A DNA stretch of 64,000 nucleotides, from the NCBI GenBank assembly GCA_043228905.1, contig JBHGNT010000004.1, positions 16,554,001-16,618,000 on the forward strand, written 5' to 3'. Positions 6,570 through 59,430 of the stretch are shown in pieces; position 1 is the first letter of the stretch, and every line of letters begins with the position of its first letter. This DNA is from Azolla caroliniana. Taxonomy: Eukaryota > Plantae > Polypodiophyta. The position numbers were made by a program, and so were the translations under genes. The notes under the pieces are model-generated. The model did no database searches. It worked only from the letters and a program-made list of their open reading frames with translations, and had not been told where the DNA came from.

Positions 6570-6624
6570 CAAGGGTCGGATGGTGGATTCGACGTACAAG
6601 GTACTGTCCCACGGGTGTGCCATG

Positions 6625-7059
6625 TGTTACCGGTCAGCAAAGGAGTCCAGAGTGTGAAACGAAGGAGTTATTTAATTATTAAGGAATGGTTGTAAGTGAG
6701 CTATTAGTGTGGACGGACGGACCGGAATCGGTATGCCGTTCCGGATCCGAACCGATCCCGAACAGGTGCGGATGGCACCGTTTTGTACTACAAACCGGAA
6801 ACCTATTTAAAGGCCCGGATGCAATGTAATGTTCAGCGGATAATTAATGAAGCTTAGTGTTTTTATCTCTCTGTGTTAATTGTCGTTCTGCATTCATTGT
6901 TATATCTTACGCGTGTGATTATTAAGGACGATCTTGCTAAGTAACCTAATTAAGTCGGATTAATCGTTGAGCCTAATCCTCTTGCCGTAACACCCCTTTG
7001 GTGAAGTGTCTTCCGTAGACACCTTGTGTTAGGCCATTGTCCGGCCCTAAGAGTTAACA
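6625..7059 (+). repeat. 3' LTR of the Gypsy element
   Basis: TGTTA...TAACA termini, TATA-like CCTATTTAAA near 6801, U5 motif shared with the LTR at 62060. Confidence 0.8.
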
Positions 7060-13300: not shown

Positions 13301-15230
13301 TGTTTTCTGAACTGGCATGCCTCGCATATGCCCGTAATCTCCTTCTCAGTAAATGTCGGGAGTCCGATTATGATTCCTTTTGACTGCATATTTTGGAGCT
13401 TTTGAAGATTGATGTGGCCGATTCTCTTGTGCCACAGTTTCAAGTTGGTTTCGATTTTAAGACCTTTCGCGAACATAGCCAATTTCACCTCTTTTGATTC
13501 GAGGATGAACATTCGGCCTTCTTGGCGACCATGCGTTATGATTTGATCATCCTTTTCGATGAAGCGCCCTTCATTATTGAATCATACTTTCATACCTTGT
13601 TCGACGATATGGCTGACCGAGACCAGGTTTTTCGTGATGATTGGGACATGCAAGACGTTCTTGAGGTAGGTTTGTTTGCCGTCATTTCCAAATGGAACAT
13701 TTCCGACATGCTGAATTGGGTGAGTCGTATCATCTCTAGTCTCAACATACTCGGGTCGATCAGGCTTTCGTAATTCTCAGAACCAATCTTCATGGGACGT
13801 CATGTGATTGGATGCTCCCGGGTCGACAAACCATATGCTATCTGAAGAAGAGGTGCTAGTCGAGGCCTGTGCCATCATCAAATGTGCTTCATGCCTCATT
13901 ACGAACATCCCGCCACGATCGTCATAGTCGGAATTCGAAGCGTAGTTCATGAGTTGTCGGCTAGTCGAAGTCGAGTCTCGTACCTTTTTTTGGCACTCCT
14001 CTTCATAATGGCCATGTTTTCCACAGTACCCGCATTCGATCGGGTTGTTACGATTGCTCGGTCCGGCGAGGTGGCTCCTGCTTTTGCCGAACTCTCTGGG
14101 ACTATTTCTGTCCCCTTGCCATTGATGGAAGTTATGCTCTTTGGTAGGATGATTGTGTTGGCCTCATTCGAGCTGATCTCTGTTTCCACGGCTGAATCCT
14201 CTTCTATAATCTGACTGTGAGTAGAGCATCTGACCATCAGGCGCATTGTTCCTTTACCAAACATGATTTTCTTTGATCAACATAATCGATTGAAGGTCGA
14301 AAAAGGAAGGAGGGTTCTCCCTCGCAAGAATAGCTGATCTGATCGTGCCGAATCGAGGTGCCAAGCCATCGAGGCATATTTGAATCATTTCGTCATCATC
14401 GATTACGACATTAATTGAACCGAGGGCATCACACAACTCCTTGATCTTCAAGGTATAGCTAGTGATCGACATGTCCCTCTGTTGCATGTTGTTTAGCTCC
14501 CGTCGAAGTTGAAGCTTTCGTGCAGCCGTATTGGCCGCAAAAATCTTCTTGAGATTTCCCCAAGCTTCTTTCGGTGTTTTCGAATCTCGAATATAGCCTA
14601 GCATGTGGTCATGAACGCATGACGCAAGGCAGTATAACACACGACTCGCGGCCTGCTCCCACGCTAGGTATTCGGCGTGTGTAGGGTTGGGTTGCGTTTC
14701 GTGAGCTCCCTCAATATAGCTCAAGTAACCTTGTCTGACAAGGTAATGATGCATCTTGTACTCCCAAGATGCGAAGTTTGTTCTATCGAGCTTCTCGATA
14801 GGAAGAGCGCTTCCCATCTGGGTGTTCATTGTCGAACTTCTTCTACTCTTGATGCGAGTTGTGCGGAAATCGTTGCTGCAGTGATCAGTTGGTTCTCTGC
14901 TAGCTTGAGCACGCCACACGTGAAGGCGATGGGCTTGGATCAAGCTACCACACGCTCTGATACCATGTAAAGAATCAAGAGTGATTTTGTACAGCGGAAG
15001 GACTATGTGTGTGTGTGTGCACGTGAGACAAGAGAGAGAATGAGAGAGAGAGAGAACTATAACAAGAAATTGTATATTACATCCAACAGAAACTAAGTTA
15101 CAAAAAAGTTGGTTTAAGTAACAACTAGGCTAGGGCAAATTCCCTTTCAACTATTTACAAAACTAGCATGGTATGTCCATGAGCTAGTGTGAAACCTATC
15201 TCTATGGGAAGTTGAGTTCGACTCTCAACA
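10304..15230 (-). mobile_element. Ty1/Copia element B (decayed, near full length), inserted in Copia C
   Basis: 5' LTR 14966-15230, tRNA-iMet PBS TGGTATCAGAGC (minus, 14954-14965), fragments of gag-PR-INT-RT-RH, partial 3' LTR 10304-10429 nearly identical to about 15107-15230. Confidence 0.92.
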
Positions 15231-18345: not shown

Positions 18346-18365
18346 GTTCAAGCCATTTTATAAAT

Positions 18366-24109
<5,744 letters not shown>

Positions 24110-35814: not shown

Positions 35815-36436
35815 TATGTCGATTCTTCTTCTTCTTCTTCTTCTTCTTCTTCTCTCTTGAATGCGAGCTATGTAGCGAAGCTACGATAGCGATGAGCTGG
35901 TTCTTGGTCATCGGCGTGGAGCACAACACACGATCATGATGAGGCGAATGGGCTAGATCGAGCTACCAAATCGCTCTGATACCATGTAAAGAATCAAGAG
36001 ATGGATTCTTGTGAAGCGGAATAGGTGTGAACTGTGTGTGTATGAGAGAGAGAGAGAGAGCGAGAGAGACAAGGAGTAATACACAGAGAATACGCAAGGT
36101 AAAAATTATATTAGCAAAGGTGAAAGACTCAACATTATACAAGGTGGGAGGAGGGTGCTTTATGTAGTTACCCTCTCTCTTCATTAACTACAAGCCTCAT
36201 GGAGCATGGGGAATGTGAAAGCTCATAAGTTATGTGTCATAGAATATGATTCTATGACTCATACTAAATGCTAGAATACAAAGTGGTGACATTGTCATGA
36301 TATGGCAAGACTCGAACCCATGACCTTATGCTACATGGGTCGAGCTCTTACCATTAGACTATGAATTGTAATACGTAGAATATTATTTTCATTTATGTTT
36401 TATCATAGAAAATTGATGTATATTCCAGATCTCTCT

Positions 36437-36482
36437 GGAACATTCTAGAAGCTTCAGGATTATTCCTGAGAACACTATAAAA
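36437..36482 (+). promoter_or_regulatory. Perfect four-unit heat-shock element plus TATA box in the chromovirus LTR (second copy from 41683)
   Basis: gGAAcaTTCtaGAAgcTTCa at 36437-36456 and TATAAAA at 36476-36482. Confidence 0.8.
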
Positions 36483-36794
36483 GAGGGCCCTAGGCATTAT
36501 GTTTAACCAAATTGGTTCAACGCCAGTCTTAAGGGTTTTAGCCATTTTGTACTTATCCTTCACATAATATATTGGCTGTCATCATAATCTCTCTCTCTCT
36601 CTCTCTCTCTCTCATCCTCGCTATCTCTCTCTCGGGAGTCTTACGCAGTCCCGTCCTCTTAGTACTAATAGTACTGCTCCTCTTTAGTACTAATTCCATC
36701 TCTGCTTAGTACTATTCCTGACAGTTTGAACCAATTTTCTTTTCTCCAACCTACTTGTCGTTCTCCCTCATCCTCCTACCCTTTTCCCTATACT

Positions 36795-37952
36795 ATGGCT
36801 ACTGTTAGCGCCCAAGAATATCAATCCATTTTCTCCGAGCTACAGTGCTTAAAAGAAAAATTTGTTGCCTTGGAACAAGAAAACCAACGGCTGATAGGGG
36901 ATCTGCAACAAATCGCTTTAGAAAAACAACAAACGCAACAACAACATGGGGAGTTAGCGTTACGGGTGCAACAACTCGAAGCAGCATTGCAACAACAAGG
37001 ATCAAGTCCCCAAGGATTTCATAAAGAGCCGAAGATTGGACTTCCTGTGAAATTTGATGGAACGCGATCGCAGTTCAGGGGATTCCTTAATCAGGTACGA
37101 TTAGTCCTCCAAATGCATCCTTCCCATTATCCCAATGATGCATCCCGAGTCGGCTTAATAGGCACATTGCTTAGCGGCTCAGCCTTAGCATGGTTTGCTC
37201 CGCTTCTAGAAAAACAATCGCCCTTGCTTAATAACTTTGAAGATTTTATTAGTGAGTTTAAAGCTTGCTTTGGAGACACCGACAGCATCAGGACGACGAT
37301 CAACAAGATCCGGCGATTGCGTCAAGGCGATCGTCCAGCCTCTGCCTACGCGGCAGATTTCCGCCTACTTGCTTCAGATATACCCTGGGATGATCAAGCA
37401 CTAATGGAGCAGTTTCGCTATGGCTTGCGAAACGATGTCAAAGATCTACTTCTAACTTTCCCCGAAGAACCAAAATCTCTTACGGAGGCAATCAGTCGAG
37501 AGGTCCGATGTGAGAACCGCCTTTTCGAACGACGTTTAGAACGTCAATTACAGATACCACACTCTAGGCCGGTGCCCACTTACGCCGCAGTCGCGGCTAA
37601 ACCGTTTGCACGAGACATACCTCAAGCAAATACTTCGACACCGATGGAGATCGATACCATGCGTCGACGCGGCCCGTTATCGGAAAAAGAAAAGCAACGA
37701 CGACGTGCCAATCGATTATGTCTTTATTGCGGTGGACCAGGACATATCGCCATCAATTGTCCCCATAGGCCAAGAAGATAGGTAAATCAAATCGTCGCCT
37801 GTACGAAACCCGAGTCAATTCTTCCCTTCGGAGTGTCTGATAGTATTAATAGTACTAATAGAGTGTTAGATAGTATTCATAGTACTAATAGCCCAAGTAT
37901 CTCAAATAAATTTGAAATCCTTAGTCAATTAGATGAAGAGTTAAACGATTGA
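36795..37952 (+). pseudogene. gag: Chromovirus gag (one premature TAG at 37779, likely CAG>TAG)
   Basis: PVKFDGTR...LSGSALAWF...LRQG...CLYCGGPGHIAINC; the frame stays open from 37782 to the TGA at 37950. Confidence 0.88.
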
Positions 37953-40900
37953 GTCCAGCCAAAATAGGAGCTGTTTGGTTGGACAACAACCCTAGATCTG
38001 TACAACCCATTAGTGGTTCCATTCCTTCCAAGCAAGTTAGTAATGTGTTCCTAGCCCAAGTCATTGTTAGTACTAAAAGTACTCCCCCAGTACCCGTCCT
38101 AGCACTTTTAGATTCCGGAGCTAATTCTTGTTTCATGGATCGAAATTTTGCCCAAGCTTCTCAGATATCCTTAAGAAAAATTCATTGTCCCGCATCTGTA
38201 GTAGTCATTGATGGTCGTCCCATTGCTTCCGGGAATATTGTAGAAGAATCAGAACCCATTCAAGTTGTCCTAGGTAGTTTTGTGTGTATAATATCATTTA
38301 ATATAATTAGTAGTCTAGAGCATCCCATTGTCCTAGGATTACCTTGGTTTGAATTACATAATCCAGCCATAGATTGGCGAACAAGAGAAGTCCGATATCG
38401 ACCACCCCAAGAATCAACTCACCGAGTTTCGACCATTTCACTCCATCAACAGTTTCGACCATTTCACTCCATCAACTACGCGAAGAAGGACCCAAGGAGG
38501 CAATGTTCCTATTTGCCATATCAGTACATCCTTCCAGCACTATTAAGAAGGACTCCTCAGTACAACTTCCGGCAAAATATCATCCTTATGCCGATGTATT
38601 TGACAAGGTAAAAGCCGGTACCCTTCCTCACCACCGTCCCTATGACTGTCCCATCGATTTACAACCAGGAACCGAGCCACCATGGGGACCAATTTACAAC
38701 TTGTCACCCACCGAGTTAGAAGTCCTTCGAGCCTACATAGAGGAGAACTTGGCAAGCGGGTTCATTCGTCATTTGAAATCTCCGGCCGGTGCACCCATCT
38801 TCTTTGTCAAGAAGAAAGATGGCTCACTTCGTCTCGTCGTTGATTACCGCGGATTGAATAAAGTCACCATCCGGAATAGGTATGCACTTCCTCTTATATC
38901 AAGTCTTTTAGAGCGAGTTAATGGTGCCAATTTTTTTACTAAAATCGACCTACGAGGAGCGTATAACCTCGTGCGGATCTGACCGGGAAATGAATGGCAG
39001 ACCGCCTTTCGCACGCGGTATGGGCATTTCGAGTATACTGTTATGCCGTTCGGCCTAACCAATGCACCCGCATTCTTCCAACACATGGCAAATGATATAT
39101 TCAGAGACCTCTTGGATATCTGTTTGATCATCTATCTGGATGATCTATTGATTTATTCGAAGACCCAGGAAGAGCACGATTCTCATGTACTATTAGTACT
39201 AAAGCGACTCCGCGAGAATGGTCTTTATGCCAAGCTAGAAAAATGTAGCTTTGACTGCAAGCAAGTGGAATTTCTAGGCTACGTCATCTCCTCAAAAGGC
39301 ATCGCCATGGATCCAGCTAAAATCCAAGCTGTACTAGAGTGGCAAATTCCACGGTTTTCTAGGTTTTGCTAACTTCTACCGTAAGTTTATATAGGATTAC
39401 TCGAAGATTATTTTACCTCTCACACAACTTTCGAAGAAGGGCCAAGCATTTCTTTGGTCCATCGAAGCAGATATGGCTTTTCGGCATCTTAAGAAAGCCT
39501 TTACATCAACACCGATTCTAGCTCATGTGGATACAAGCAAACCATTCATCATGGAGGCCGACGCATCAGATTTCGCCCTCGGTAGCATCCTTTCTCAACA
39601 AGGAGATAAAGAAGAGTTGCATCCGGTGGCTTTCCATTCGCGCAAATTTGATGTCGCAGAAATCAACTATGAAATACATGACAAAGAGTTATTAGCCATC
39701 GTGGATTCATTTGTGCAATGGCGGCATTTCTTAGAGGGCTCTTCACATCAGGTCATTGTCTTTAGCGATCATAAAAATCTTGCTTATTTTCAGAACGCTC
39801 GCGTACTAAATCGACGACAAGCTCGGTGGGCGCAATTCCTCACGCGTTTCGACTTCAAAATCATATATCGACTGGGGAAGCAGCAAGGAAAAGCAGATGC
39901 ACTATCACGGCGGTCATATCTTGCACCTCGTCCTGGTGATGCAACCTTTGATAATCAAAAGCAAGTAATCTTGGGACCAACACGATTGCACACGACGCGG
40001 ATTTTTCACACCCCGATGGATTCACGGATTACCGATGACATACGTGCAACCTTGAAGATGGATAGTTTTTCTCAAGACATCCTGGCGCACATTGATACTT
40101 CTCGGGTATCCTGTTCTCAGTCTCAACAACCAGGTATTGACTATCGACAATTCGAATATCATGAGGGTTTGTTATTCTTTAAAAAGCGCGTATATGTCCC
40201 CCATTGCTCTTGTCGCCTTCAAATTGTCCAGCATTGTCACGACACCCATACGGCAGGACATTTCGGTAGTACTAAGACGTTGGAGCTAGTGCAGCGATCT
40301 TTTTGGTGGCCCCACATGCGCCGTTTTGTCGACGACTACGTTCAGACCTGTGATGCTTGCTGCCGAGCAAAGATGCCACGACACCATCCATATGGCTTGT
40401 TGGAACCCTTTCCGATTCCAAGTAAGCCGTGGCACTCTATTTGTCTTGATTTTATCACAGATCTGCCGGTCTCGAAGGGGTTCGATGCTATCCTAACCGT
40501 CGTCGATCGATATACGAAGATGGCACATTTTGTGCCGTGTACTAAAACCATCACTAGCGAGGAAACCGCCGCCCTTGTTATGCGTGAGGTATTTCAGCAT
40601 CATGGCCTCCCAGATAATATCATCAGTGACCGAGGACCGCAATTTGTCTCCAAATTTTGGCAGCATCTCTTCAAGATGCTCAAGGTCTCCTACAACCTCT
40701 CCTCCGGCTACCATCCTCAGATCGACGGGCAGGCGGAACGAACAAACCAAACACTGGAGCAATATCTCCGGTGTTTCCTGAGTTATCAACAGGACGATTG
40801 GGCCGAGATTCTCCACTTTGCGGAGTTTGCGTATAATAATGCTATTCACTCCTCGACTCGGGTCTCCCCATTTTTCGCTTATATCGGTTCTCATCCTCGC

Positions 40901-41527
40901 TGGTCGGTGATCGACACCCCGGAGCTACCTACCAATCCTCGTGCCGGGGATCATTTGGAGAGACTACGCAAGATCCAGACAGATCTCTCGACTCATCTTC
41001 ATCATGCTCAATAGACGCAGAAGACTTACGTGGATTGTCATCAGCTTCCCTCCTCTTTTGCCATCGGAGATCGAGTATGGCTCTTACGTCGTCACATCAA
41101 GACTACTCGACCGTGCGACAAGTTGGATTATCGACGACTCGGTCCTTTCCGTATTACGGGTAAGGTTAATGATGTCACATTCCGCCTTGATCTCCCTCCG
41201 CAGCTTCAGATACATCCGGTTTTCCATTGTTCTCTTCTTGAACCTTATAAGGCAAACACCATTCCCGATCGTGTTACACCACCGCTGCCCCCGCTGGAGT
41301 TGGACGCCGGCCCAGAGTATGAAGTTGCTACCATCCTCGATTCCAAACTTGTTCGCAACAAACTTTATTATTTGGTCGATTGGCTCGGTTATAGTCCAAG
41401 CGAACGTACTTGGGAACCCATCGTGCCTATTGCCAATGCTCATGATCTTCTTGCTGATCTCCACCGAAAGTATCCAGACAAACCCGGTCGGCAATCAGCG
41501 CCGACTCGTTCCACTCGTCGTCTTTAA
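37949..41527 (+). pseudogene. pol: Chromovirus pol (PR-RT-RNaseH-INT-chromodomain), disrupted
   Basis: LLDSGA, MPFGLTNAP, YLDDLLI, DASDFALG, CLDFITDLP, GPF, chromodomain EYEVATIL...YLVDWLGY...TWEP. A 26-bp tandem duplication at 38425-38476 causes one frameshift, and there are several stops. Confidence 0.95.
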
Positions 41528-42884
41528 GGGGGAGATAGTGTCATGATATGGCAAGACTCGAACCCATGACCTTATGCTACATGGGTCGAGCTCTTACCGT
41601 TAGACTATGAATTGTACTACGTAGGATATTATTTTCATTTATGCTTTATCATAGAAAATTGATGTATATTCTAGATCTCTCTGGAACATTCTAGAAGCTT
41701 CAGGATTATTCCTGAGAACACTATAAAAGAGGGCCCTAGGCATTATGTTGAACCAAATTGGTTCAACGCCAGTCTTAAGCCTTTTAGCCATTTTGTACTT
41801 ATCCTTCACATAATATATTGGCTGTCATCATCATCTCTCTCTCTCTCTCTCTCTCATCCTCGCTATCTCTCTCTCGGGAGTCTTACGCAGTTCCGTCCTC
41901 TTAGTACTAATAGTACTGCTCCTCTTTAGTACTAATTCCATCTCTGCTTAGTACTATTCCTGACAGACATAATGGTGACTCTTGACCGTTGGAGTGTCTC
42001 TTCACTCTCAAGGTGAGTTCACACACTAGACCAAGTTGAGCTTGATTCTCAACACTTAAAATAAACGCTGAGGATGTGGTACCAAAAGTTCGACTCCTAC
42101 ATCGGGCAGCTTGGATACTGCCGATTCGACTCCGACCATGTATGTATACTTGACAATTGGCCGATGAGTCTTGGATCTAACTGATCCTATATGTCGAGAC
42201 ATGCTGATTGTAGGAAGCAATCAAGCCGAAATCGGAAAGCTAAAGCGAAGTTTTCACAAAAATTTTGCAATGAAGGAATTCAAACAAGCCCGACACATAT
42301 TGGGCATGAGGATAGAGGGAAATCAGATACCAAAAACTCTTTGACTCTCCCAGTCCAACTATATTCGCAAGGTGTTGAAGCACTTTAACATGGAGAACGC
42401 GAAGCTAGCACCAACACCGCTTCCAACATCGATCCGACTATCGGATAGAGACTCTCCTTCGACAGATAATGAGAGAGAACTAAATGGAAAGATACCCTAT
42501 GCATCGGCCATAAGAAGTATCATGTACGCGATGGTGATGACCCGGCCCGATCTTGCCTATGTTGTAGGGGTAGTCAACCGATACATGTCAAACCCAAGAA
42601 GAAAGCATTGGGAGGCCGTCAAGCACATCTTCAGGTATCTAAGAGGGATCGAAGATGCACAATTGACTTTCGGATTGGCAAACTCGACCAAAGTAGAAGG
42701 CTACATCGACTCTGACTATGCCGAAAATTCAAACAATCGGAATACGACATTAGGCTACATCTTCACCTATGGCAGTGGCGCCATATCATGGAGGTCGAAG
42801 CTGCAAGAGTGCACGACTCTGTCTACCAAAGATACCGAGTACATAGCAACATCAGAAGCAGCGAAGGAAGCGACTTGGCCGTTC

Positions 42885-44026: not shown

Positions 44027-44035
<9 letters not shown>
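43120..44035 (-). mobile_element. RTE-X-like LINE fragment (RT C-terminal half)
   Basis: SPTQFG, LIYADDVV, ESFKYL motifs; shares sequence with the LINE at 25225. Confidence 0.8.
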
Positions 44036-44079
<44 letters not shown>

Positions 44080-44081
<2 letters not shown>

Positions 44082-44682
44082 AAGAAAGATAGGGAAATAA
44101 TTTGCACACAATCAAATAGACAATAAATGATCAACAAAAACTCGATTAACAGCAGAGATAGATAAAATCGCACCTCGAACCCAGAAATGGTAGAACAATC
44201 ACATTAGATACGTGTAGGTGAAACTCCAGTCAAGGAGCACATGGGCTCGCGGTAGTGAGTGGAGGCCTCACGCAACACTGACAGAGGGTGATCACTCGGG
44301 ACTGAATCTCTACCTTCCTAACACTCTAAATTCCCCAAAAGAGAGGAGACAGTCCACAACCATTAGCCTTCCCCATTTTATAGCTTCAAGGGGTGGGATT
44401 ATTATTACAATGGGAATGCCCTGAAATTCCTCTCCTATCAAAGAGGAATCTCTGTCACAATCTTCCTCTTAACTACCCCTCCTTTCTCTCCTACGTGTCA
44501 TTAAAGTACACATCACACGAGTTCCTTTAGTGTATGTTCGCACTTTACATTTTACATTCGACCCTCACTTTGTTCTCCTAATGTGCATGTGCATAAACCC
44601 CTTTTTGTGTGTGTATATGTGCACATGCCCAATTCTCCTGTTTCAGTGGTTTTTCTCGCTGTCGTTGGAATTCTTCACGACA
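44080..44682 (-). repeat. Probable truncated LTR
   Basis: Minus strand begins TGTCGTGAA, as does the solo LTR at 57109, and has CTATAAAA near 44380; it abuts Copia RNaseH. Left end unclear. Confidence 0.45.
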
Positions 44683-46364: not shown

Positions 46365-46397
46365 TAGGGTTTAGGGTTTAGGGTTTAGGGTTTAGGG
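46365..46397. repeat. Interstitial (TTTAGGG)4 telomere-type repeat
   Basis: Four perfect copies at 46370-46397. Confidence 0.9.
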
Positions 46398-46602: not shown

Positions 46603-46631
46603 TTTAGGGTTAGGGTTAGGGTTAGGGTTAG
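46603..46631. repeat. TTTAGGG(TTAGGG)3 telomere-variant repeat
   Basis: Directly visible. Confidence 0.85.
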
Positions 46632-46894: not shown

Positions 46895-49472
46895 GGCTGC
46901 TTTGGGTATGGAAGTAAATTACTACTTTGAGGCAATTAATTACAAGGATAAGTTACTACTAACGAAATGCTTCAAAGAAAGGATTGGATGGATATGCCAA
47001 AATGAAGCCAAATGTACATATATATATATATACATATATGTATATGGTATATTCACAGGACATTACATAGTACACACCATCACTATACATACATATATGT
47101 ACATACATACATAGTAGGCACCTCATTTACAAACATCATCCACATTTTGTCCCATCATTGACCATTCCATAAATACATCCTCACATTCCTCACATCTCCC
47201 TTGCCTTGCTACCCTAAAGGATTCAATATACCTGAACCCCCATTTGATTTGGTAGAACCCGTCAATGCTACATTATTCATAGTGTGCCCCATGGTTCCAT
47301 TATTATAAACGCCTTCATTAACCAAGCAATTCAAGTGGATGGGAACGGTTATGAAGTAACAAGCTCGATCTAGGTTGACGAGTAAACACGCGGAGACATT
47401 TTCTGTATGGCGAGAGTAAATTTGAAAATAGATAATAACTAAGAGAAAATTTAAGAAACGTGATTCGAAATCAGAAAATCAAAGGAATAGGTTTCTTTAC
47501 ATGTGACATCTAGAAATAAAGATGTAGAATGCATGATTTCATTTCCATATACATAATAAAATGCAAGAGTGTTTATAGATAATTATTGTTCAAATTGCAT
47601 TGTGAACAATGTATGTTTTCTATGTTTCCTTCAAACAAGAGAAGAATTCTTCCACGAGCTTGTTGAGCTTGAAGAAATTAAACACGTTATTGATATACAA
47701 AAAAGTCTAAAATGGTTTAGAAGATAACCATCATGTGACACGTAGTTAACTAAAACAAAGCACACAATTCAGAAAGTTGAGAATAATCATTATACATTGA
47801 TGGGAGGACCGAAGCGTGATTACAAAAAAGGCTTTGCTTTGATATAAAGGAAGCTCTGGCTCATGTGCTCCGATTTGCCAATATATTGAAACAACTAAGT
47901 GGGTGAAGTGAGAGCTAACCATGGCCATAATATGTTCTAGTATACTAGGTTGTTTAAGTATACTAGATTCAATGCACCCCTTATTTTGTTGATTGTTCTT
48001 TGGTGGTTGGCGTTTTTTCATGCCTAAGCACATTATTTGTAACAACCACATCATTAATTCTGTTTATTGTTCAATGCACAACGCACGTTGCACAGGATTG
48101 CCCCATCTCTTAGGATCAACTAACCCATGTCCAATTGTTGTTCACATGGAACCTTTCTCCACTTCGGTCTTCAAAGTTCTCATTTGAATATTTGCTACTA
48201 CCACCAAGATCTGCATTGGGGGTAGTTTTCCCAAGCTTTATCATCTCAATGGAATCTGTCAACAAGAAAGAGTACCCACATGTTGTCGTTATGTGGTATT
48301 TATAGTTTATGAAAGGTTAAAGATCAAGTTGAAGAAATGACTTGAATGAAAGTGACACGACGAAACTCCAAACAACAAAAAGATATAATTAAACTCGCAA
48401 CGGTTAACCCTTGGATTGATAAGGTCCAAAGTTTGAATATAGTTAGGGGTGACGAAGGGAGAACTGTGATCTATATAGTATGCAAGCTATATCATTGAGG
48501 TATGTGGTAAAAATGAAAAGAGAAATTATGTCAATCAAGTTTCAAGATCAAGTGCTACAAAAATAAACATATTGTTTTGGTAGATAAGCTCTAAAAACCC
48601 ATAAAAAGAGGACTCGACCCATTGCTAGGAAGGAAGGGGAGGATAACTTTTTGCATGAGGCGGAAGCACATGCAAAATTTCATTCATCAAGTTAAGGATA
48701 GTCAATCAAGACAATGTACAAGATTAATTGTCAAAGTGTTTTTAGAATTCAAGCATTGTCAAAGTGTATGGAGCATTCACATCTGGAGGGTAAGAACACG
48801 AACCAAGTTCTTGAGGAGAAGTCAAACTAAAAACGGGAGACATGGAGAAAAGTGAAAGGAGAAAAAGTGGGCCACCTAAAAACAATCTAAAAAAACGCTC
48901 ATAACGCTTTGGTTTGGAACCCAAATATCATGTTCAAAAATGAGTTGGGAGCTTGTGAAGTCAGCTATGTTTAAAATTTTATATCTCTAAATTTTGAGCT
49001 CTGGTGGGGGAGATATGGTGATGAGAAGGTCATTATGTCATAGCTAAAACTAGGAGATGAAAAACTTCTAAAAAAAGTGTGGAAAAGAAAGGAAGGGGAT
49101 GAAATTAGCTAGGAGAGGATACCTTTGTAAGAAGGAAGGGGAGTAAGGCTGTGTTGAGGGGTTCTTGGTTTATTTCTTATGGTGTTTTCTTTCTCGTTCA
49201 TGTAGTGTGGTTGATGTGTTATCAATAGATGTTTGGCGATTTGGATTTATATATCTTCTTTCTCTCTTCTTTCTATCATCATCATTCATTTTTGTGCTCC
49301 AAGGAGGGACGATCTCTTTCGTATCTTGGGAAGGTTGATTGTGTCGTAGTATTGCGTGGATATGGCTTTTCAATTTGTGTTTGTAGGTGATGGCAGTCAA
49401 GATGCAGGAGCTTTTTTGGCATCCTTTGAGCATCATGAGGTTTCAGTTGGGAAGGTGAATGACATAGAGAAA

Positions 49473-52400
49473 TGTTAAGGATTAGGTAATTAATTAAGGA
49501 ATAATTATTACCTAATTATGTGATTAAGTTAAGCAGAAGATTATGTGATATGTGTGTGTATGTGTGTGAGAGGAAGAGAGAAAGAGAAAGAGAGAGAGAG
49601 ACTTATGAATAACACAAGATGGGGGATGAGTAAACTAGAGTGTATATTATAAAACATCATCAAATCCAAAAATACCCACAATGAGGTATATATACATCTC
49701 ATGTGCAAAGGTGCACATGTGTGAGTAGAATATAGGTACTAATGTGTAAGTCATATATTAAATGTACTTAGGAGTGGAGGATCTAGAATATCCCACTTAA
49801 GTACAAGGTCCTATTTAAGGCGTTATAGTCAACACTTCTAACTAGATTCTATCTAGGTAACTATGAAGTTACATTGTTGACTAACTAACTAAACTAAGTT
49901 GAGCTTGATTTCTCAACATGCCCCCTCAAGCTAAGTGTGAGGCGTCCGACATCCGACGTTGTTTTTGGCGTTGTCCGGCTTTCGATGTCGGCTTCTGTGT
50001 GGCTTCCGTCTGGCCTTCGGCTTTCTTCGCCGTGGCAATCTCGGGTCCTCCCCCTCAAGCCAATGACGAAGGCTTGTAGTGTGTGGGCGAAGGTCGGCTA
50101 CTTCCACCCATCATGGGTTACGAGCCGCTTCGGTGGAGCTCTTGGGCTCTTGTTCGGCAACTACCTTCATCGTGAAGGCGTAATGATGGGCCATGTACTT
50201 GTTGTAGCCGTGCCGAGTGACGGGGTTCTTTGCTCTAGATGAGCGTCGAAGTTTTTCGCTCGCCGATGTGAGTGCCTTCTTTACTCCGAGTGTACGCATG
50301 ATGGGTACACCAAAATCACTATCTAGCGAGGGAGCCGATCCATCCGAATCATTGTTGTCGGGGTGATCACCTTCGTATTCGGGCATCTTACGTTTGCCTT
50401 TGTCCAAGTTCGTACTTGGCCGCGATGTGCTTGGGTCCGTGGGGGCTCTTGTGGCCCACTAAGCTTAGTTGTAATTGAACTTTCTTCGAACATGTGTTAG
50501 AAGTGATCTCCATCTTCTACCTCTTGTTCGGTGGATTCCGGGTCGACCAAAGTCAGAGTCGAAGTTGTCTCTGGTGCGTACCACGATGTGGACTCGTCGA
50601 AGACTACGTCTCGACTTACCCGAACCGCTCGGGTAGAAGGGTTGTAACACTTGTACGCCTTCTTCTCGGACGAGTATCCTATGAGGCGACTTTGCGTCAA
50701 GCTTCTGTCGTTGTTCTTTCGGGATGCGATGTCGTGACGATTTTCGGCTACGGTGTGAAACCGAGTGAGACGAATAAACCAAGGATGTGCAACATTGCAC
50801 ATACACTTAGCAAATAAGCCTCCTAAGGCCTAGTGGCACTTGAGTTCATACAGAGGGGTGCAAGCAAGGATTGAACCTTGCACCTCTAAGATACAAGATA
50901 ATTGCCTTACCACTAGGACAACTATCATATAGTGTAGATTTTATGTATTTCCTTTTCATATACAAATTATAGACGAAACAACCATAGAAAACCATGTGCA
51001 CAAAACCATGGTTTTAAACCCATGGTTTGTGCATGACATAAGCAAAACCGTGTGCACAAAACCATGGTTTTAGCCCATGGTTATGTGCATGTCACGAACA
51101 TGGAAAGACCTATAAAAGCCTCTAGTTGGGCTTGTGTAAGGGGGGCTCAATATGTGATATCACCAACACCATTATCATCAATATAATATTTGTCTTTATC
51201 TTCTTCATATTTTTCTACTTCTCAAGTGTACAATTTTTCTTCTTCTCAAGTAAACCATTTTCATTTAATCTTACATTGATCGTCATCTAGCGTCGATAAT
51301 TCCGCGATCATCCTCCCCAGTCCAAGACCCAGGTGGTCGCTCGAGTAGCACACGCACGCGCGAATCTTCGCGACAGCGTACATTCACAAAGCTTCCGAAT
51401 ACCTTGAGGTGCGACAGGATCGGCTTCCTCTGACGAGGAGCTCGTATGGAGTTAGCTCATGGACTCCATTGGTGGTGCACTGGTTCATGAGATAGACGGC
51501 CGTGGATGCCGCGTCGGCCCAATAGAAATTTGGTATGTGCTTTTCATGCATCATGGCGCGTGCTACCTCAAGTATTTGCCGATTTTTCCTTTCGGTGACT
51601 CCATTTTGTTGGGGTGTGTGTCGGCACGAAAATTCTCTCCGAATGCCTTCACTTTGGAGGTAGGAGGTGAACTTGTTGGAGAAGTGCTCCTTTCCTCCAT
51701 CCGATTGTAGGCATCGAATGTGCTGACCGGTTTCTTTTTCGACTTGCCCCTTGAGCTTTTGGAAGTGGGAGAACACTTCGCTCTTCTTCTTCATCGGGTA
51801 GATCCACGCCTAGCGCGAGTAGTCGTCGATGAAGGTTACGTAGTATCGGCATCCGCAGATCGTCGACGTTTGAGCTGGTCCCCATACATCTGAGTGTATG
51901 AAGTCGAGGAGGCCTTTGCTTGCAGAGCTCTCCTTCGGGAATGGGAGTCGATGTTGTTTGCCGAGTTGACGGGCTTCGCATACTCAGTCCACTCGTTTCG
52001 ACTCGAATGTCGGAAGTCCGATGACGACTCCCTTTTTTGCATAGCTCGGAGCCGTTGGAGGTTGATGTGGCCGATTCTTTTGTGCCACAACTCGATGTTC
52101 GTCTCGTTTTTGAGACCTTTAGCATACATTGTCGATTTCACCTCGTTTGAATCGAGGATGAACATTCAACCGTCTCTCCGTCCTTTGGCTATGAGTCGGC
52201 CATCTTTTTTGATGAAACAACCTTCGTTGTTGAAGCGGAGTTGCATGCCTTGCTCCACGATTTGGCTGACCGAGACCAAATTCTTCGTTATTGTGGGCAT
52301 GTGCAAGACATTCTTGATGCAAGTTTGCCCGCCTTCTTTCCCGAATGGGACATTGCCGATGTGCCAAATGGGATGCATGGTGTTGTCTCCTGTCTCTATG

Positions 52401-56951: not shown

Positions 56952-59430
56952 TACTGAGCAGACAAGCTCAACCGGATCTGAATCAGCTGAATAAGCTAGA
57001 GCCGGATCGGTATCCAGAACGGAGAACCGGATAGGTATTTAGAACCAAGAGCCGGATCAAAGTGTAACCGATAGGCCGTTAGAGGCCTATGGTCTTAGCC
57101 AAGTACGTTGTCGTGAAGGATTTGCTTCACGATATAAAAATAAAGTTGAATATTGTATTAAGTAATATTTGAGAGACTTGAACCCGTAACCTCACACACC
57201 AAGGACAAAGCATATACCATTAAGATAAGTTATTTTTTATAGATATGTTTTTATCACCATACTTATGACATGTGTATCTTCATACATTAGAGCTTAAATG
57301 AGCACGATGGCTATCATGCATCACATGTAAAGCATGTGCGCCAAATGGCGATCATGCATCACATCCATTACATGCATGCCATGCACCCCTATATCATCAT
57401 ATGCATGAGAGAACCTATAAAGAGAGGTAAGGAATTAAGGGATGAATCAAGGGGAAAACAGGGTAATCAATCAATGAAGAGAAAGTTAGAGAAATAAGAA
57501 AATCAAAGAAACAAATAATAAGTTAGCTTGTTGGTGAAGAGGCTCGTGTTTCCAAGTTAGAGTCAAGGGTTCAAATCCAGAGTTTGGCAAAGGAAGATTG
57601 CATCTTGCAATGAAGCATTGTACAGTTGTCCCTACGACTTCGCCACACGAACTACAACTACCCCGACAACGTAGGCATCTTTCTTGGAGTTAGTGTCAGT
57701 CGCTTGTACAAACATTGAAATTGAGTTTTTACTATTTTTCTCTCTCTATCTCTCCCACATACTCTTTGTGTGATTTAAGCTTTCCATTAAACCTATGTAT
57801 ATTTTCTGTTGCTATCCGGTGAAGCTAGTTTTGTCCGCACACAATTCTTTTCATGGTATTAGAGCGCGAGGGTTGAAAATCCTCTGCTGCCGACAAAAAG
57901 TGCTAAGTAGACAAGAAAACCTAACTTCTGGAAAATAACAGGCTGAAGAAAGATGGACAGAGGAATGGCTAGCTCGCTTCTAATGGAGAAGCTCGACAGA
58001 AGCAACTATGCATCTTGGTCTTACAAGATGCACCAGTACCTGCTCAGACACAGTTACTAGAGCTATGTCAAAGGAGCAAATGAAGTAGCATCGGAGTTGG
58101 CACACAAGGACTTCTCGGCATGGGTGTTATACCGTCTCACATCCTCTACGCACGACCTAATGCTAGGCTACATCAAGGATGCAAAAACGCAGAAATGAGC
58201 TTGGGAGAATCTGAAAAATATTTTCACGGCAAGCACGACGGCCCGGAAGTTCCAGCTTCAACAAGACCTCAACAACGTCCGACAACAAGATATGTCGGTT
58301 ACTGACTACACCACCAAGATCAAGGAGATCTGCAACGCAATGGGTTCCATCAACGTGACAGTAGACGAAGACGAGATAGTTCAAATCTGCCTCGGTGATC
58401 TAGCACAATTGTACGGGTTAATCCGGATAGCAATTTGCACCTGGGAGAAGCCATTGTCCTTCTTCGACCTGCAATCAATGCTGATGGTCGAAGAAAACCA
58501 CGCGAGTGGGTCGAGGACCACTCAACCGGACAGCCGGATGCTATACATGGAGGCGGATCGGCCACGTGGGCATGGAGGACGAGGTGGGATGGCACGCAAT
58601 AAAGGCGGTCGGCAAGAGCAGAACCGGAGGCACAGAGATGGTGCTGACACCAATTTCGGACCCTCCACAAGTAGGGGGAGTCAAGGCGGCTCCGGAAACC
58701 GGCAATCTAAAGTCATCACGAAATGTTGATATTGTGGCAAGAAAGGCAACTAAGAAAGCGGGTGCTGGAAGAAGCACGCTGATTCAGATAAATCTGGATC
58801 TGCCAAGGCCAGACAAGGGAACCGGCAAAGCTCGTACTACGTAGAAGGATCGGAAGGATACAAAACCAGAAAGACTGGAAAAGGGCTAGCCTTTGTGATG
58901 AAACACAATGCGAACTCAATGAAGAGGACCACTTCCAGATTGGAGGAAGTGTCGTATGTTGACTCTGGAGCATCGAACCACATGACGAGCCACAAAGAGT
59001 GGTTCTCATACCTAGAAAAACCAGAGCAACCGGGTGTTATTGAAACCAGAGATGACATTCCTCACCCGATCGAGCATGTCGGAGAAGTCTCTTTGAGTCA
59101 TGTCAGGCAAAAGGGAAAGCTAATGAATGGTTTACATGTTCTGAAAATCACGAAGAACCTGGAGTCGGTCGGACAGATCATTGACCAGGGGATACGAGTA
59201 CAATTTATGCATCTCGGGTGCTTCATCGAGGAAGAAGGCCAGATCATCGCGCAAGGGCGCCGGGACGGGAGGATGTTTATCCTCGACACCAATGACTTCA
59301 ACACCGCTTTATTTGCAAAAGGTCAGGAAGTCGAGTCGGATATCGACTTGTGGCACAAGCGGATCAGCCACATAAATTATCAAAGGCTTTAGGACTTGCA
59401 ATCGAAAGAGGTTGTGTTTGGATTGCCTTA
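56952..59430 (+). mobile_element. Ty1/Copia element I (LTR, gag, protease, pre-integrase)
   Basis: LTR about 56952-57853 containing solo LTR Y, PBS TGGTATTAGAGC 57854-57865, VDSGASNHMT, LWHKRISH. Confidence 0.85.
57109..57668 (+). repeat. Solo LTR Y inserted in the Copia I LTR
   Basis: TGTCG...CGACA termini, perfect 4-bp TSD ACGT (57105-57108, 57669-57672), CCTATAAA near 57414. Confidence 0.87.

Follow-up and report, generated by a model that had tools for sequence, protein, structure and literature searches.

An antisense tRNA-type promoter cassette in the LTRs of a Tcn1-type chromovirus clade as a candidate TFIIIC site

Both LTRs of a decayed Tcn1-type chromovirus in the window (the whole 64,000-nt stretch of DNA analysed) carry an A box and a B box close to their U3 edge, on the antisense strand and at the spacing of a tRNA gene, and the same cassette recurs throughout the readable LTRs of the element's clade. 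Comparison of these LTRs indicates that the cassette is real, clade-wide and selected, and it is very probably a selected TFIIIC-type site. The best explanation, to which we assign a probability of about 0.5, is that an ancestor of the clade captured a tRNA gene or the head of a SINE backwards in U3, and that the boxes were kept as a TFIIIC site that would keep the Pol II promoter of the element open. To our knowledge, Pol III promoters in LTRs have been described only for short non-autonomous elements, where they serve the element's own transcription; a backward-facing promoter that an old clade of coding elements has retained throughout must serve another purpose. If TFIIIC binds, the cassette would be a transposon-encoded defence against silencing and would allow a direct test of TFIIIC sites as plant chromatin boundaries. 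The family is large, with thousands of contig pieces per run, and could therefore also shape the chromatin map of its host.

The chromovirus and the antisense cassette in its LTRs

The host element (36293..41965, plus strand, 5673 bp) was delimited by Pfam, self-BLAST and end mapping; it interrupts the 5′ LTR of a Copia element and is flanked by a 5-bp target duplication. Pfam domains of gag, protease, RT, RNase H, integrase, SH3 and chromodomain were recovered in pieces, with stops and frameshifts, in the Gypsy order with the chromodomain last and its aromatic-cage residues retained. The 431-bp 5′ LTR (36293..36723) and the 427-bp 3′ LTR (41539..41965), both on the plus strand, share 96.75% identity, and the B box of the 3′ LTR is 16 nt away from a polypurine tract (41526..41538, plus strand). 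A tRNA primer site was sought behind the 5′ LTR and none was found; a 12-nt self-priming site is present instead, in which the primer-binding site (36726..36737, plus strand) is complementary to the predicted 5′ end of the element RNA (36509..36520, plus strand), 34 nt behind a TATA-like box (36475..36484, plus strand) that is the element's own predicted Pol II promoter. The self-priming site is also 12 nt long in two related loci (L003 and L008) and 9 nt long in L017, was not found in L014, and the corresponding R-region motif is present in 8/8 complete Tcn1-clade LTRs. The single named protein match was from a moss (57%), and the viral contigs contained no relative of the integrase end of the chromovirus. 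The host of this self-priming clade is a likely fern; the hosts of Tcn1 given in the accessible text of PMC2864245 and PMC6317226 are mosses, Selaginella and fungi only.

On the minus strand of the 5′ LTR, the A box (tRNA positions 8-20) occupies 36350..36361 and an extended B box (tRNA positions 44-61), defined by the consensus of PMC3159450, occupies 36309..36326, with the core B box (positions 53-61) at 36309-36317 and a gap of 33 nt from G19 to G53. The sequence-only reading had proposed such a pair of boxes at tRNA spacing, present in both LTRs and so replicated with the element; the minus-strand sequence that it quoted is where it was said to be, and both proposals were confirmed, the 3′ LTR copy being located at 41555..41607 on the minus strand (A box 41607-41596, B box 41563-41555). 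The A box of the 5′ LTR is preceded, on the minus strand, by an AT-rich stretch (36362..36400; 81% AT across 10 families) that is predicted to be a platform for TFIIIB. The TATA-like box, divergent from the A box and 113 nt from it, and the self-priming site lie 113-189 nt inward of the cassette and are separate from it.

Cassettes were scored in bits as the match to an A- and B-box consensus drawn from general knowledge, and the first 220 nt of each LTR were subjected to 1000 dinucleotide shuffles. The score was 23.1 bits in both chromovirus LTRs, and 19.7 and 18.6 bits in two solo LTRs of the window, here called X and Y; it was equalled by 0/1000 shuffles for the 5′ LTR, 1/1000 for X and 0/1000 for Y. 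Per shuffled 64-kb window, 0.05 matches are expected at the score of the 5′ LTR, 0.45 at that of X and 0.75 at that of Y, so the cassettes of X and Y rest on position, strand and spacing and not on score alone. When the window was searched with the extended B-box consensus, its five best distinct places were the cassettes of the 3′ LTR, the 5′ LTR, Y (a second, sense unit described below), X and Y (antisense), and the antisense score did not exceed 12.7 bits in 12 other LTR stretches of the window, whose ends are approximate. The start of one Copia LTR (15213-15230) has an antisense B-box-like match of 12.7 bits without a good A box, which may belong to a palindrome; related Copia LTR starts mirror the sequence that precedes the polypurine tract.

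The A and B boxes lie on one strand at tRNA-like spacing, the arrangement that defines a type 2 (tRNA-type) Pol III promoter, and a tRNA origin is supported. A functional tRNA was considered and ruled out: the cloverleaf is lost, and neither ARAGORN nor Rfam detected a tRNA at the cassettes. Pairing was found in 45% of acceptor-stem and 43% of anticodon-stem cells, and in 54% of the whole cloverleaf versus 52% after shuffling, in agreement with the earlier description of a decayed cloverleaf with its promoter boxes kept. ARAGORN at lowered thresholds called 228 genes in the window and was uninformative.

Several other features of the window were recorded. An intron-containing DEAD-box RNA helicase gene with a WW domain, RH14/46-like, occupies 18360-23950 on the plus strand, and one of its introns holds a 406-bp tandem duplication of 99.8% identity (19406-20221). 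This gene grouped with ferns (0.966) in a tree biased by its projection on a fern query, which makes a fern host likely; its identity, about 85% to all land plants, did not discriminate between host taxa. Two adjacent short interstitial telomere-like runs (46369-46397 and 46604-46630) are of the 7-base plant type and the 6-base type, and a weak Rfam match marks a short, worn fragment of large-subunit rRNA at 47929-48210. In the segment 1-6990, an element is represented by gag-like and integrase remains, with long unassigned ORFs and then an LTR (about 6604-6991) behind them; inspection by eye showed no RT between these parts.

Distribution across the clade and in solo LTRs

An alignment of 55 integrase-chromodomain ends was used for a scan of metagenome contigs that was blind to the cassette, returning 565 relative stretches, the best 80 of which gave 79 loci. 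The start of the 3′ LTR, set by hand in seven cases, could be placed with at least 85 nt readable in 52 of the 79 loci, and the 27 unreadable loci were dropped. The cassette was found in 11/11 readable LTRs of the window's clade (L001, L002, L003, L004, L005, L007, L008, L012, L014, L017 and L047, with L002 and L003 forming one family), all of them from one assembly set and from related families that are not independent samples; its orientation was antisense in 15/15 carriers. Every one of the 11 beat all 30 of its own shuffles, versus 2/41 LTRs outside the clade, where some of the starts may be wrong. With the extended B-box consensus, taken from the accessible text of PMC3159450, 10 of the 11 carriers scored at least 20 bits and L012, whose cassette scores about 10-11 bits, reached 11.2, and the 41 outside LTRs scored at most 13.9. 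The outcomes that the sequence-only reading had named as fatal to its proposal, namely boxes missing from the family consensus, boxes no better conserved than the rest of U3, or equally good matches at similar frequency in shuffled or unrelated LTRs, did not occur.

Carriers share 56-90% integrase identity with the window element and form one group with it in a FastTree integrase tree of 80 rows (support 0.974). In an IQ-TREE integrase tree of 32 rows the group was supported at 99.5 without L017, the placement of which had a support of 41.8. No readable LTR within the carrier group lacks the cassette; five members are unreadable, and one of these, L072, has the B-box half in a rearranged LTR start. 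Most carrier LTRs have little other U3 sequence in common. Extra cassette matches in L003 and L008 were set aside as chance, since they lie in protease-RT coding sequence. Outside the carrier group, the 3′ LTRs of the Tcn1-like loci L015, L016 and L026 start with tandem repeats that contain a motif loosely resembling an antisense B box, and they do not score as cassettes.

The coordinates of X and Y were assigned here, none having been given before. X (50730..51375, plus strand) lies inside a Copia coding region with a 4-bp NCGN target duplication containing one mismatch, and its antisense cassette (50868..50920, minus strand) has the B box 138 nt from the LTR start. Y (57109..57668, plus strand) lies inside a Copia LTR, likewise with a 4-bp NCGN duplication and with ends confirmed by empty-site joints; its antisense cassette (57175..57227, minus strand) has the B box 66 nt from the LTR start. 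The claim that X and Y share the antisense design of the chromovirus holds, with the same strand and the same 33-nt spacing. Y alone has a second A/B cassette in sense orientation (57524..57577, plus strand), complete in its extended B box, in R-U5 downstream of its TATA box, which scored 16.8 bits, or 22.3 bits with the extended consensus, a value equalled in 3/60 shuffled windows; Y therefore contains two divergent tRNA-type units flanking its TATA box. The first bases of Y also include a perfect 8-bp inverted repeat (57111-57132).

Other features of X and Y point away from the Tcn1 clade. An NCGN target was found in 2/2 duplications and in one flank of a partial LTR, Z, at a CG frequency of 0.044, and a preference for NCGN targets belongs to the Phygy non-chromoviruses in the accessible text of PMC6317226. 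The R-region self-priming motif of Tcn1-clade LTRs is absent from X and Y, and the flank upstream of Y in other copies is purine-rich and unlike the Tcn1 tract. The window and the 79 loci yielded no internal (coding) region for X or Y, and the viral contigs no match to the LTR start of Y. Z (about 44030-44682, minus strand) has a start similar to those of X and Y and lacks the antisense cassette; a lone sense B-box-like match was seen in it near 44180. A similarity between Z and the Tcn1 R-U5 was set aside, as CT microsatellites are present in both.

The sequence-only reading had described three LTR families, otherwise dissimilar, sharing one cassette. The shared cassette stands; the full independence of the families does not, because a 27-nt U3 motif (57338-57364) is common to Y and two Tcn1-clade LTRs, L008 (z 9.3) and L007 (z 4.9). 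On account of this motif, three separate inventions are less likely than common descent or an exchange of U3 sequence. The cassette module may have crossed Gypsy lineages, and the simplest, though tentative, reading would be that two Gypsy lineages of the same host exchanged U3 sequence. In three runs the 27-nt motif belongs to the parts of Y with the highest coverage. An extended version, in which a portable, outward-facing TFIIIC/TFIIIB boundary module with an antisense hairpin RNA was swapped between chromovirus and non-chromovirus in one host and seeded thousands of TFIIIC sites, appears doubtful to us.

Conservation of the boxes and readings of the site

Conservation was measured across 10 non-redundant families, three close kin of the window element being left out, in identity windows anchored on the boxes, which makes the spacer a fair control. 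Pairwise identity was 0.70 in the A box, 0.80 at positions 44-48 and 0.78 in the B box, and 0.35 in the anticodon arm that forms the spacer (0.27 expected), 0.44 upstream and 0.33 downstream, so that the boxes exceed the flanking U3, the comparison that the sequence-only reading had singled out for checking. Positions 8, 14, 18, 20, 44, 46, 47, 53, 54, 55 and 58 show no variation; in the A box, T stands in place of G10 in 7/10 families, and T also replaces C56 in 2/10, two substitutions that count against the TFIIIC-site reading. The spacing was 33-34 nt in 13/13 cassettes when 29-37 nt was permitted in the search, the only length change in the cassette being one D-loop base, and the distance from cassette to LTR start ranged from 16 to 138 nt. 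Among 40 of the 89 rows of contigs from the window's own family (four runs), the variants lie in the spacer and flanks and the B box is free of them; an additional D-loop base is present in many copies. That the cassette survives as an inert remnant of an ancient SINE or tRNA insertion, copied along with the LTR, is improbable: although no tool recognizes it as a tRNA and single copies with broken boxes occur (L004, L012 and L047), a spacer near chance between conserved boxes, with a length change of one base only, largely refutes this.

Wobble-type changes (G-to-A, T-to-C) at universal G and T positions were found in 0/90 cells of the 10 families, with one across all 13 rows, and in 5/50 cells of the anticodon arm; positions 44, 46 and 47 joined this test after the alignment was seen. 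These counts bear on the possibility that the module acts in the element RNA, its U3 pairing with host tRNA loops for strand transfer, dimer formation or packaging. A tRNA-binding site would need just this orientation, the cassette adjoins the polypurine tract, and the fixed spacing would follow if the pairing extended over an entire tRNA. However, pairing tolerates wobble, the clade is self-priming and requires no tRNA primer, the spacer that would specify one tRNA is the least conserved part, and A58, which is normally methylated in tRNA and cannot pair, is kept in 10/10 families, leaving this an unlikely reading. The lack of wobble-type changes, in a clade without need for a tRNA primer, favours reading the cassette as a protein-DNA site, for TFIIIC, over a tRNA-pairing site. 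The extended B-box consensus, which also holds for isolated, non-tRNA B boxes in Dictyostelium in the accessible text of PMC3159450, includes the invariant G46 and T47, and these fit DNA recognition for that reason.

A working Pol III gene is a further candidate, its selected product being an antisense rod hairpin RNA that would limit or tune expression of the element; a transcript starting in the 3′ LTR copy would cross the polypurine tract and the terminal part of pol in reverse. Both boxes and the AT-rich upstream stretch are kept, and the cassette can fold into a rod (positions 22-36 with 48-63; 36307..36348, minus strand) that is strong in the window's family and weaker or absent in others, the fold of the window cassette having an energy of -31.4 kcal/mol (z -5.85). 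In 8 held-out families, which were not used to define the rod, its register was paired in 79/120 cells, above slid registers (38-58), arm shuffles (49.6; 0/5000 reached 79) and 70 real tRNAs (mean 7.8/15, random sets of 8 giving 62 cells), the last control consisting of prokaryotic and viral tRNAs, not plant ones. On the antisense strand, G-U pairs outnumber A-C mismatches in the rod cells by 25 to 7. Against a working gene, no oligo-T terminator is conserved near the cassette: T4 occurs inside the LTR in 5/14 and up to about 1 kb away elsewhere, and from the 3′ LTR cassette the first T4 on the minus strand is 1007 nt onward, inside pol, a transcript reach that would itself suit the proposed action on pol. 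Moreover, L007, L008 and L017 pair at 7-8/15, the level of the real tRNAs, 6/11 antisense folds do not surpass shuffled sequence (z above -1), and RNAalifold returned no consensus structure.

The missing terminator weakens the antisense-RNA branch of the earlier reading, and a gene kept for its hairpin product seems to us a tentative option at best. Nevertheless, the rod count of 79/120 against 62, taken with the G-U excess over A-C, suggests that antisense RNA is partly under selection in some families, and that Pol III transcribes the unit in some of them. The hairpin may also explain the fixed spacing of the A and B boxes, which needs a cause other than TFIIIC because TFIIIC tolerates varied A-B distances.

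Under the preferred reading, in which the cassette is a TFIIIC site, a tRNA gene or tRNA-derived SINE head would have entered U3 backwards, once, and the clade would have retained the promoter boxes at fixed spacing, likely for host TFIIIC. By analogy with known Pol III biology, TFIIIC would bind the B box, the A box would position TFIIIB on the AT-rich DNA between cassette and TATA box, and Pol III would be directed out of the LTR, facing away from the Pol II promoter at a distance of 113-189 nt. The benefit, the least certain step, would arise at the LTR edge, where an element that inserts into other transposons would gain a chromatin boundary or a zone poor in nucleosomes; any RNA from the cassette would be a by-product. 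All four carrier LTRs of the window are inserted within other transposons, and on this ground we judge the chances evenly balanced that a chromatin role is the main benefit. A pure boundary requires the B box alone, and retention of the A box is evidence against reading the cassette as nothing but a boundary. TFIIIC-only sites have boundary activity in yeasts, according to the accessible text of PMC3159450. The same text gives isolated B boxes as targets of the Dictyostelium retroelement TRE5-A, in keeping with a decoy or landing pad at which TFIIIC and TFIIIB would steer retroelements that target tRNA genes, or the integrase of the element itself, to the LTR edges; this is very unlikely, as none of the window's four carrier LTRs (0/4, a sample of four copies) has an insertion upstream of the cassette, and the Copia sequences into which the carriers inserted contain no scoring cassette.

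Comparison with known systems

No description of an antisense tRNA-type promoter in autonomous plant LTRs was found in the literature covered, which did not extend to subscription journals, Repbase reports or bioRxiv supplements. Element RNAs with tRNA-complementary U3 sequence include those of Ty3, in the 3′ part of its bipartite primer site, and HIV-1, in a tRNA-like stretch at U3-R. Both are tRNA-primed and match one specific tRNA, whereas the present clade is self-priming and shares only the universal boxes.

The host elements resemble the Tcn1 chromoviruses in domain order, aromatic-cage chromodomain, LTRs of about 430 bp and self-priming (PMC2864245, PMC6317226; accessible text). A search of the accessible text of PMC2864245 for tRNA returned mentions of priming only and no tRNA-like unit in U3. 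B-box boundaries, some of them proposed and some with mobile carriers, are known from extra-TFIIIC sites and isolated B boxes (PMC3159450) and from B2 SINE boundaries (PMC8136502), again as far as the accessible text of these papers goes; those are host sites or SINEs, whereas the present B box belongs permanently to an autonomous LTR and is accompanied by a retained A box.

Among LTR elements, the Cassandra and Ajax TRIMs likewise have a small-RNA-derived Pol III promoter in both LTRs, but in the accessible text of PMC10886601 they are non-autonomous, and their promoter is derived from 5S rRNA and transcribes the element itself, unlike the present case. Cassandra is also sense-oriented, and the present cassette antisense.

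The sequence-only reading knew of no such unit in plant Gypsy LTRs, which stands in so far as no exact precedent was found, but it overlooked the closest relative, Helenus (TRIMp3; Kojima 2024, PMC10886601). The accessible text and supplement of that paper, which mentions tRNA-like pieces in other Repbase LTRs and limits its analysis to TRIMs, describe LTR sequence derived from a tRNA, conservation centred on boxes A and B, and no functional tRNA, all as here; the proposed origin is a SINE insertion into an LTR, and one plant family is known, in Selaginella. Helenus elements are non-coding, non-autonomous and 311-1263 bp long, whereas the element described here is 5673 bp long with gag-pol remains. 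The Helenus unit is in sense orientation in the LTRs of the supplement and is thought to transcribe the element, whereas the present cassette is antisense and points outward, with an additional sense unit in Y only; and Helenus is tRNA-primed, whereas the present elements are self-priming with a TATA box of their own. The present elements therefore fall outside Helenus in orientation, size, coding capacity and priming.
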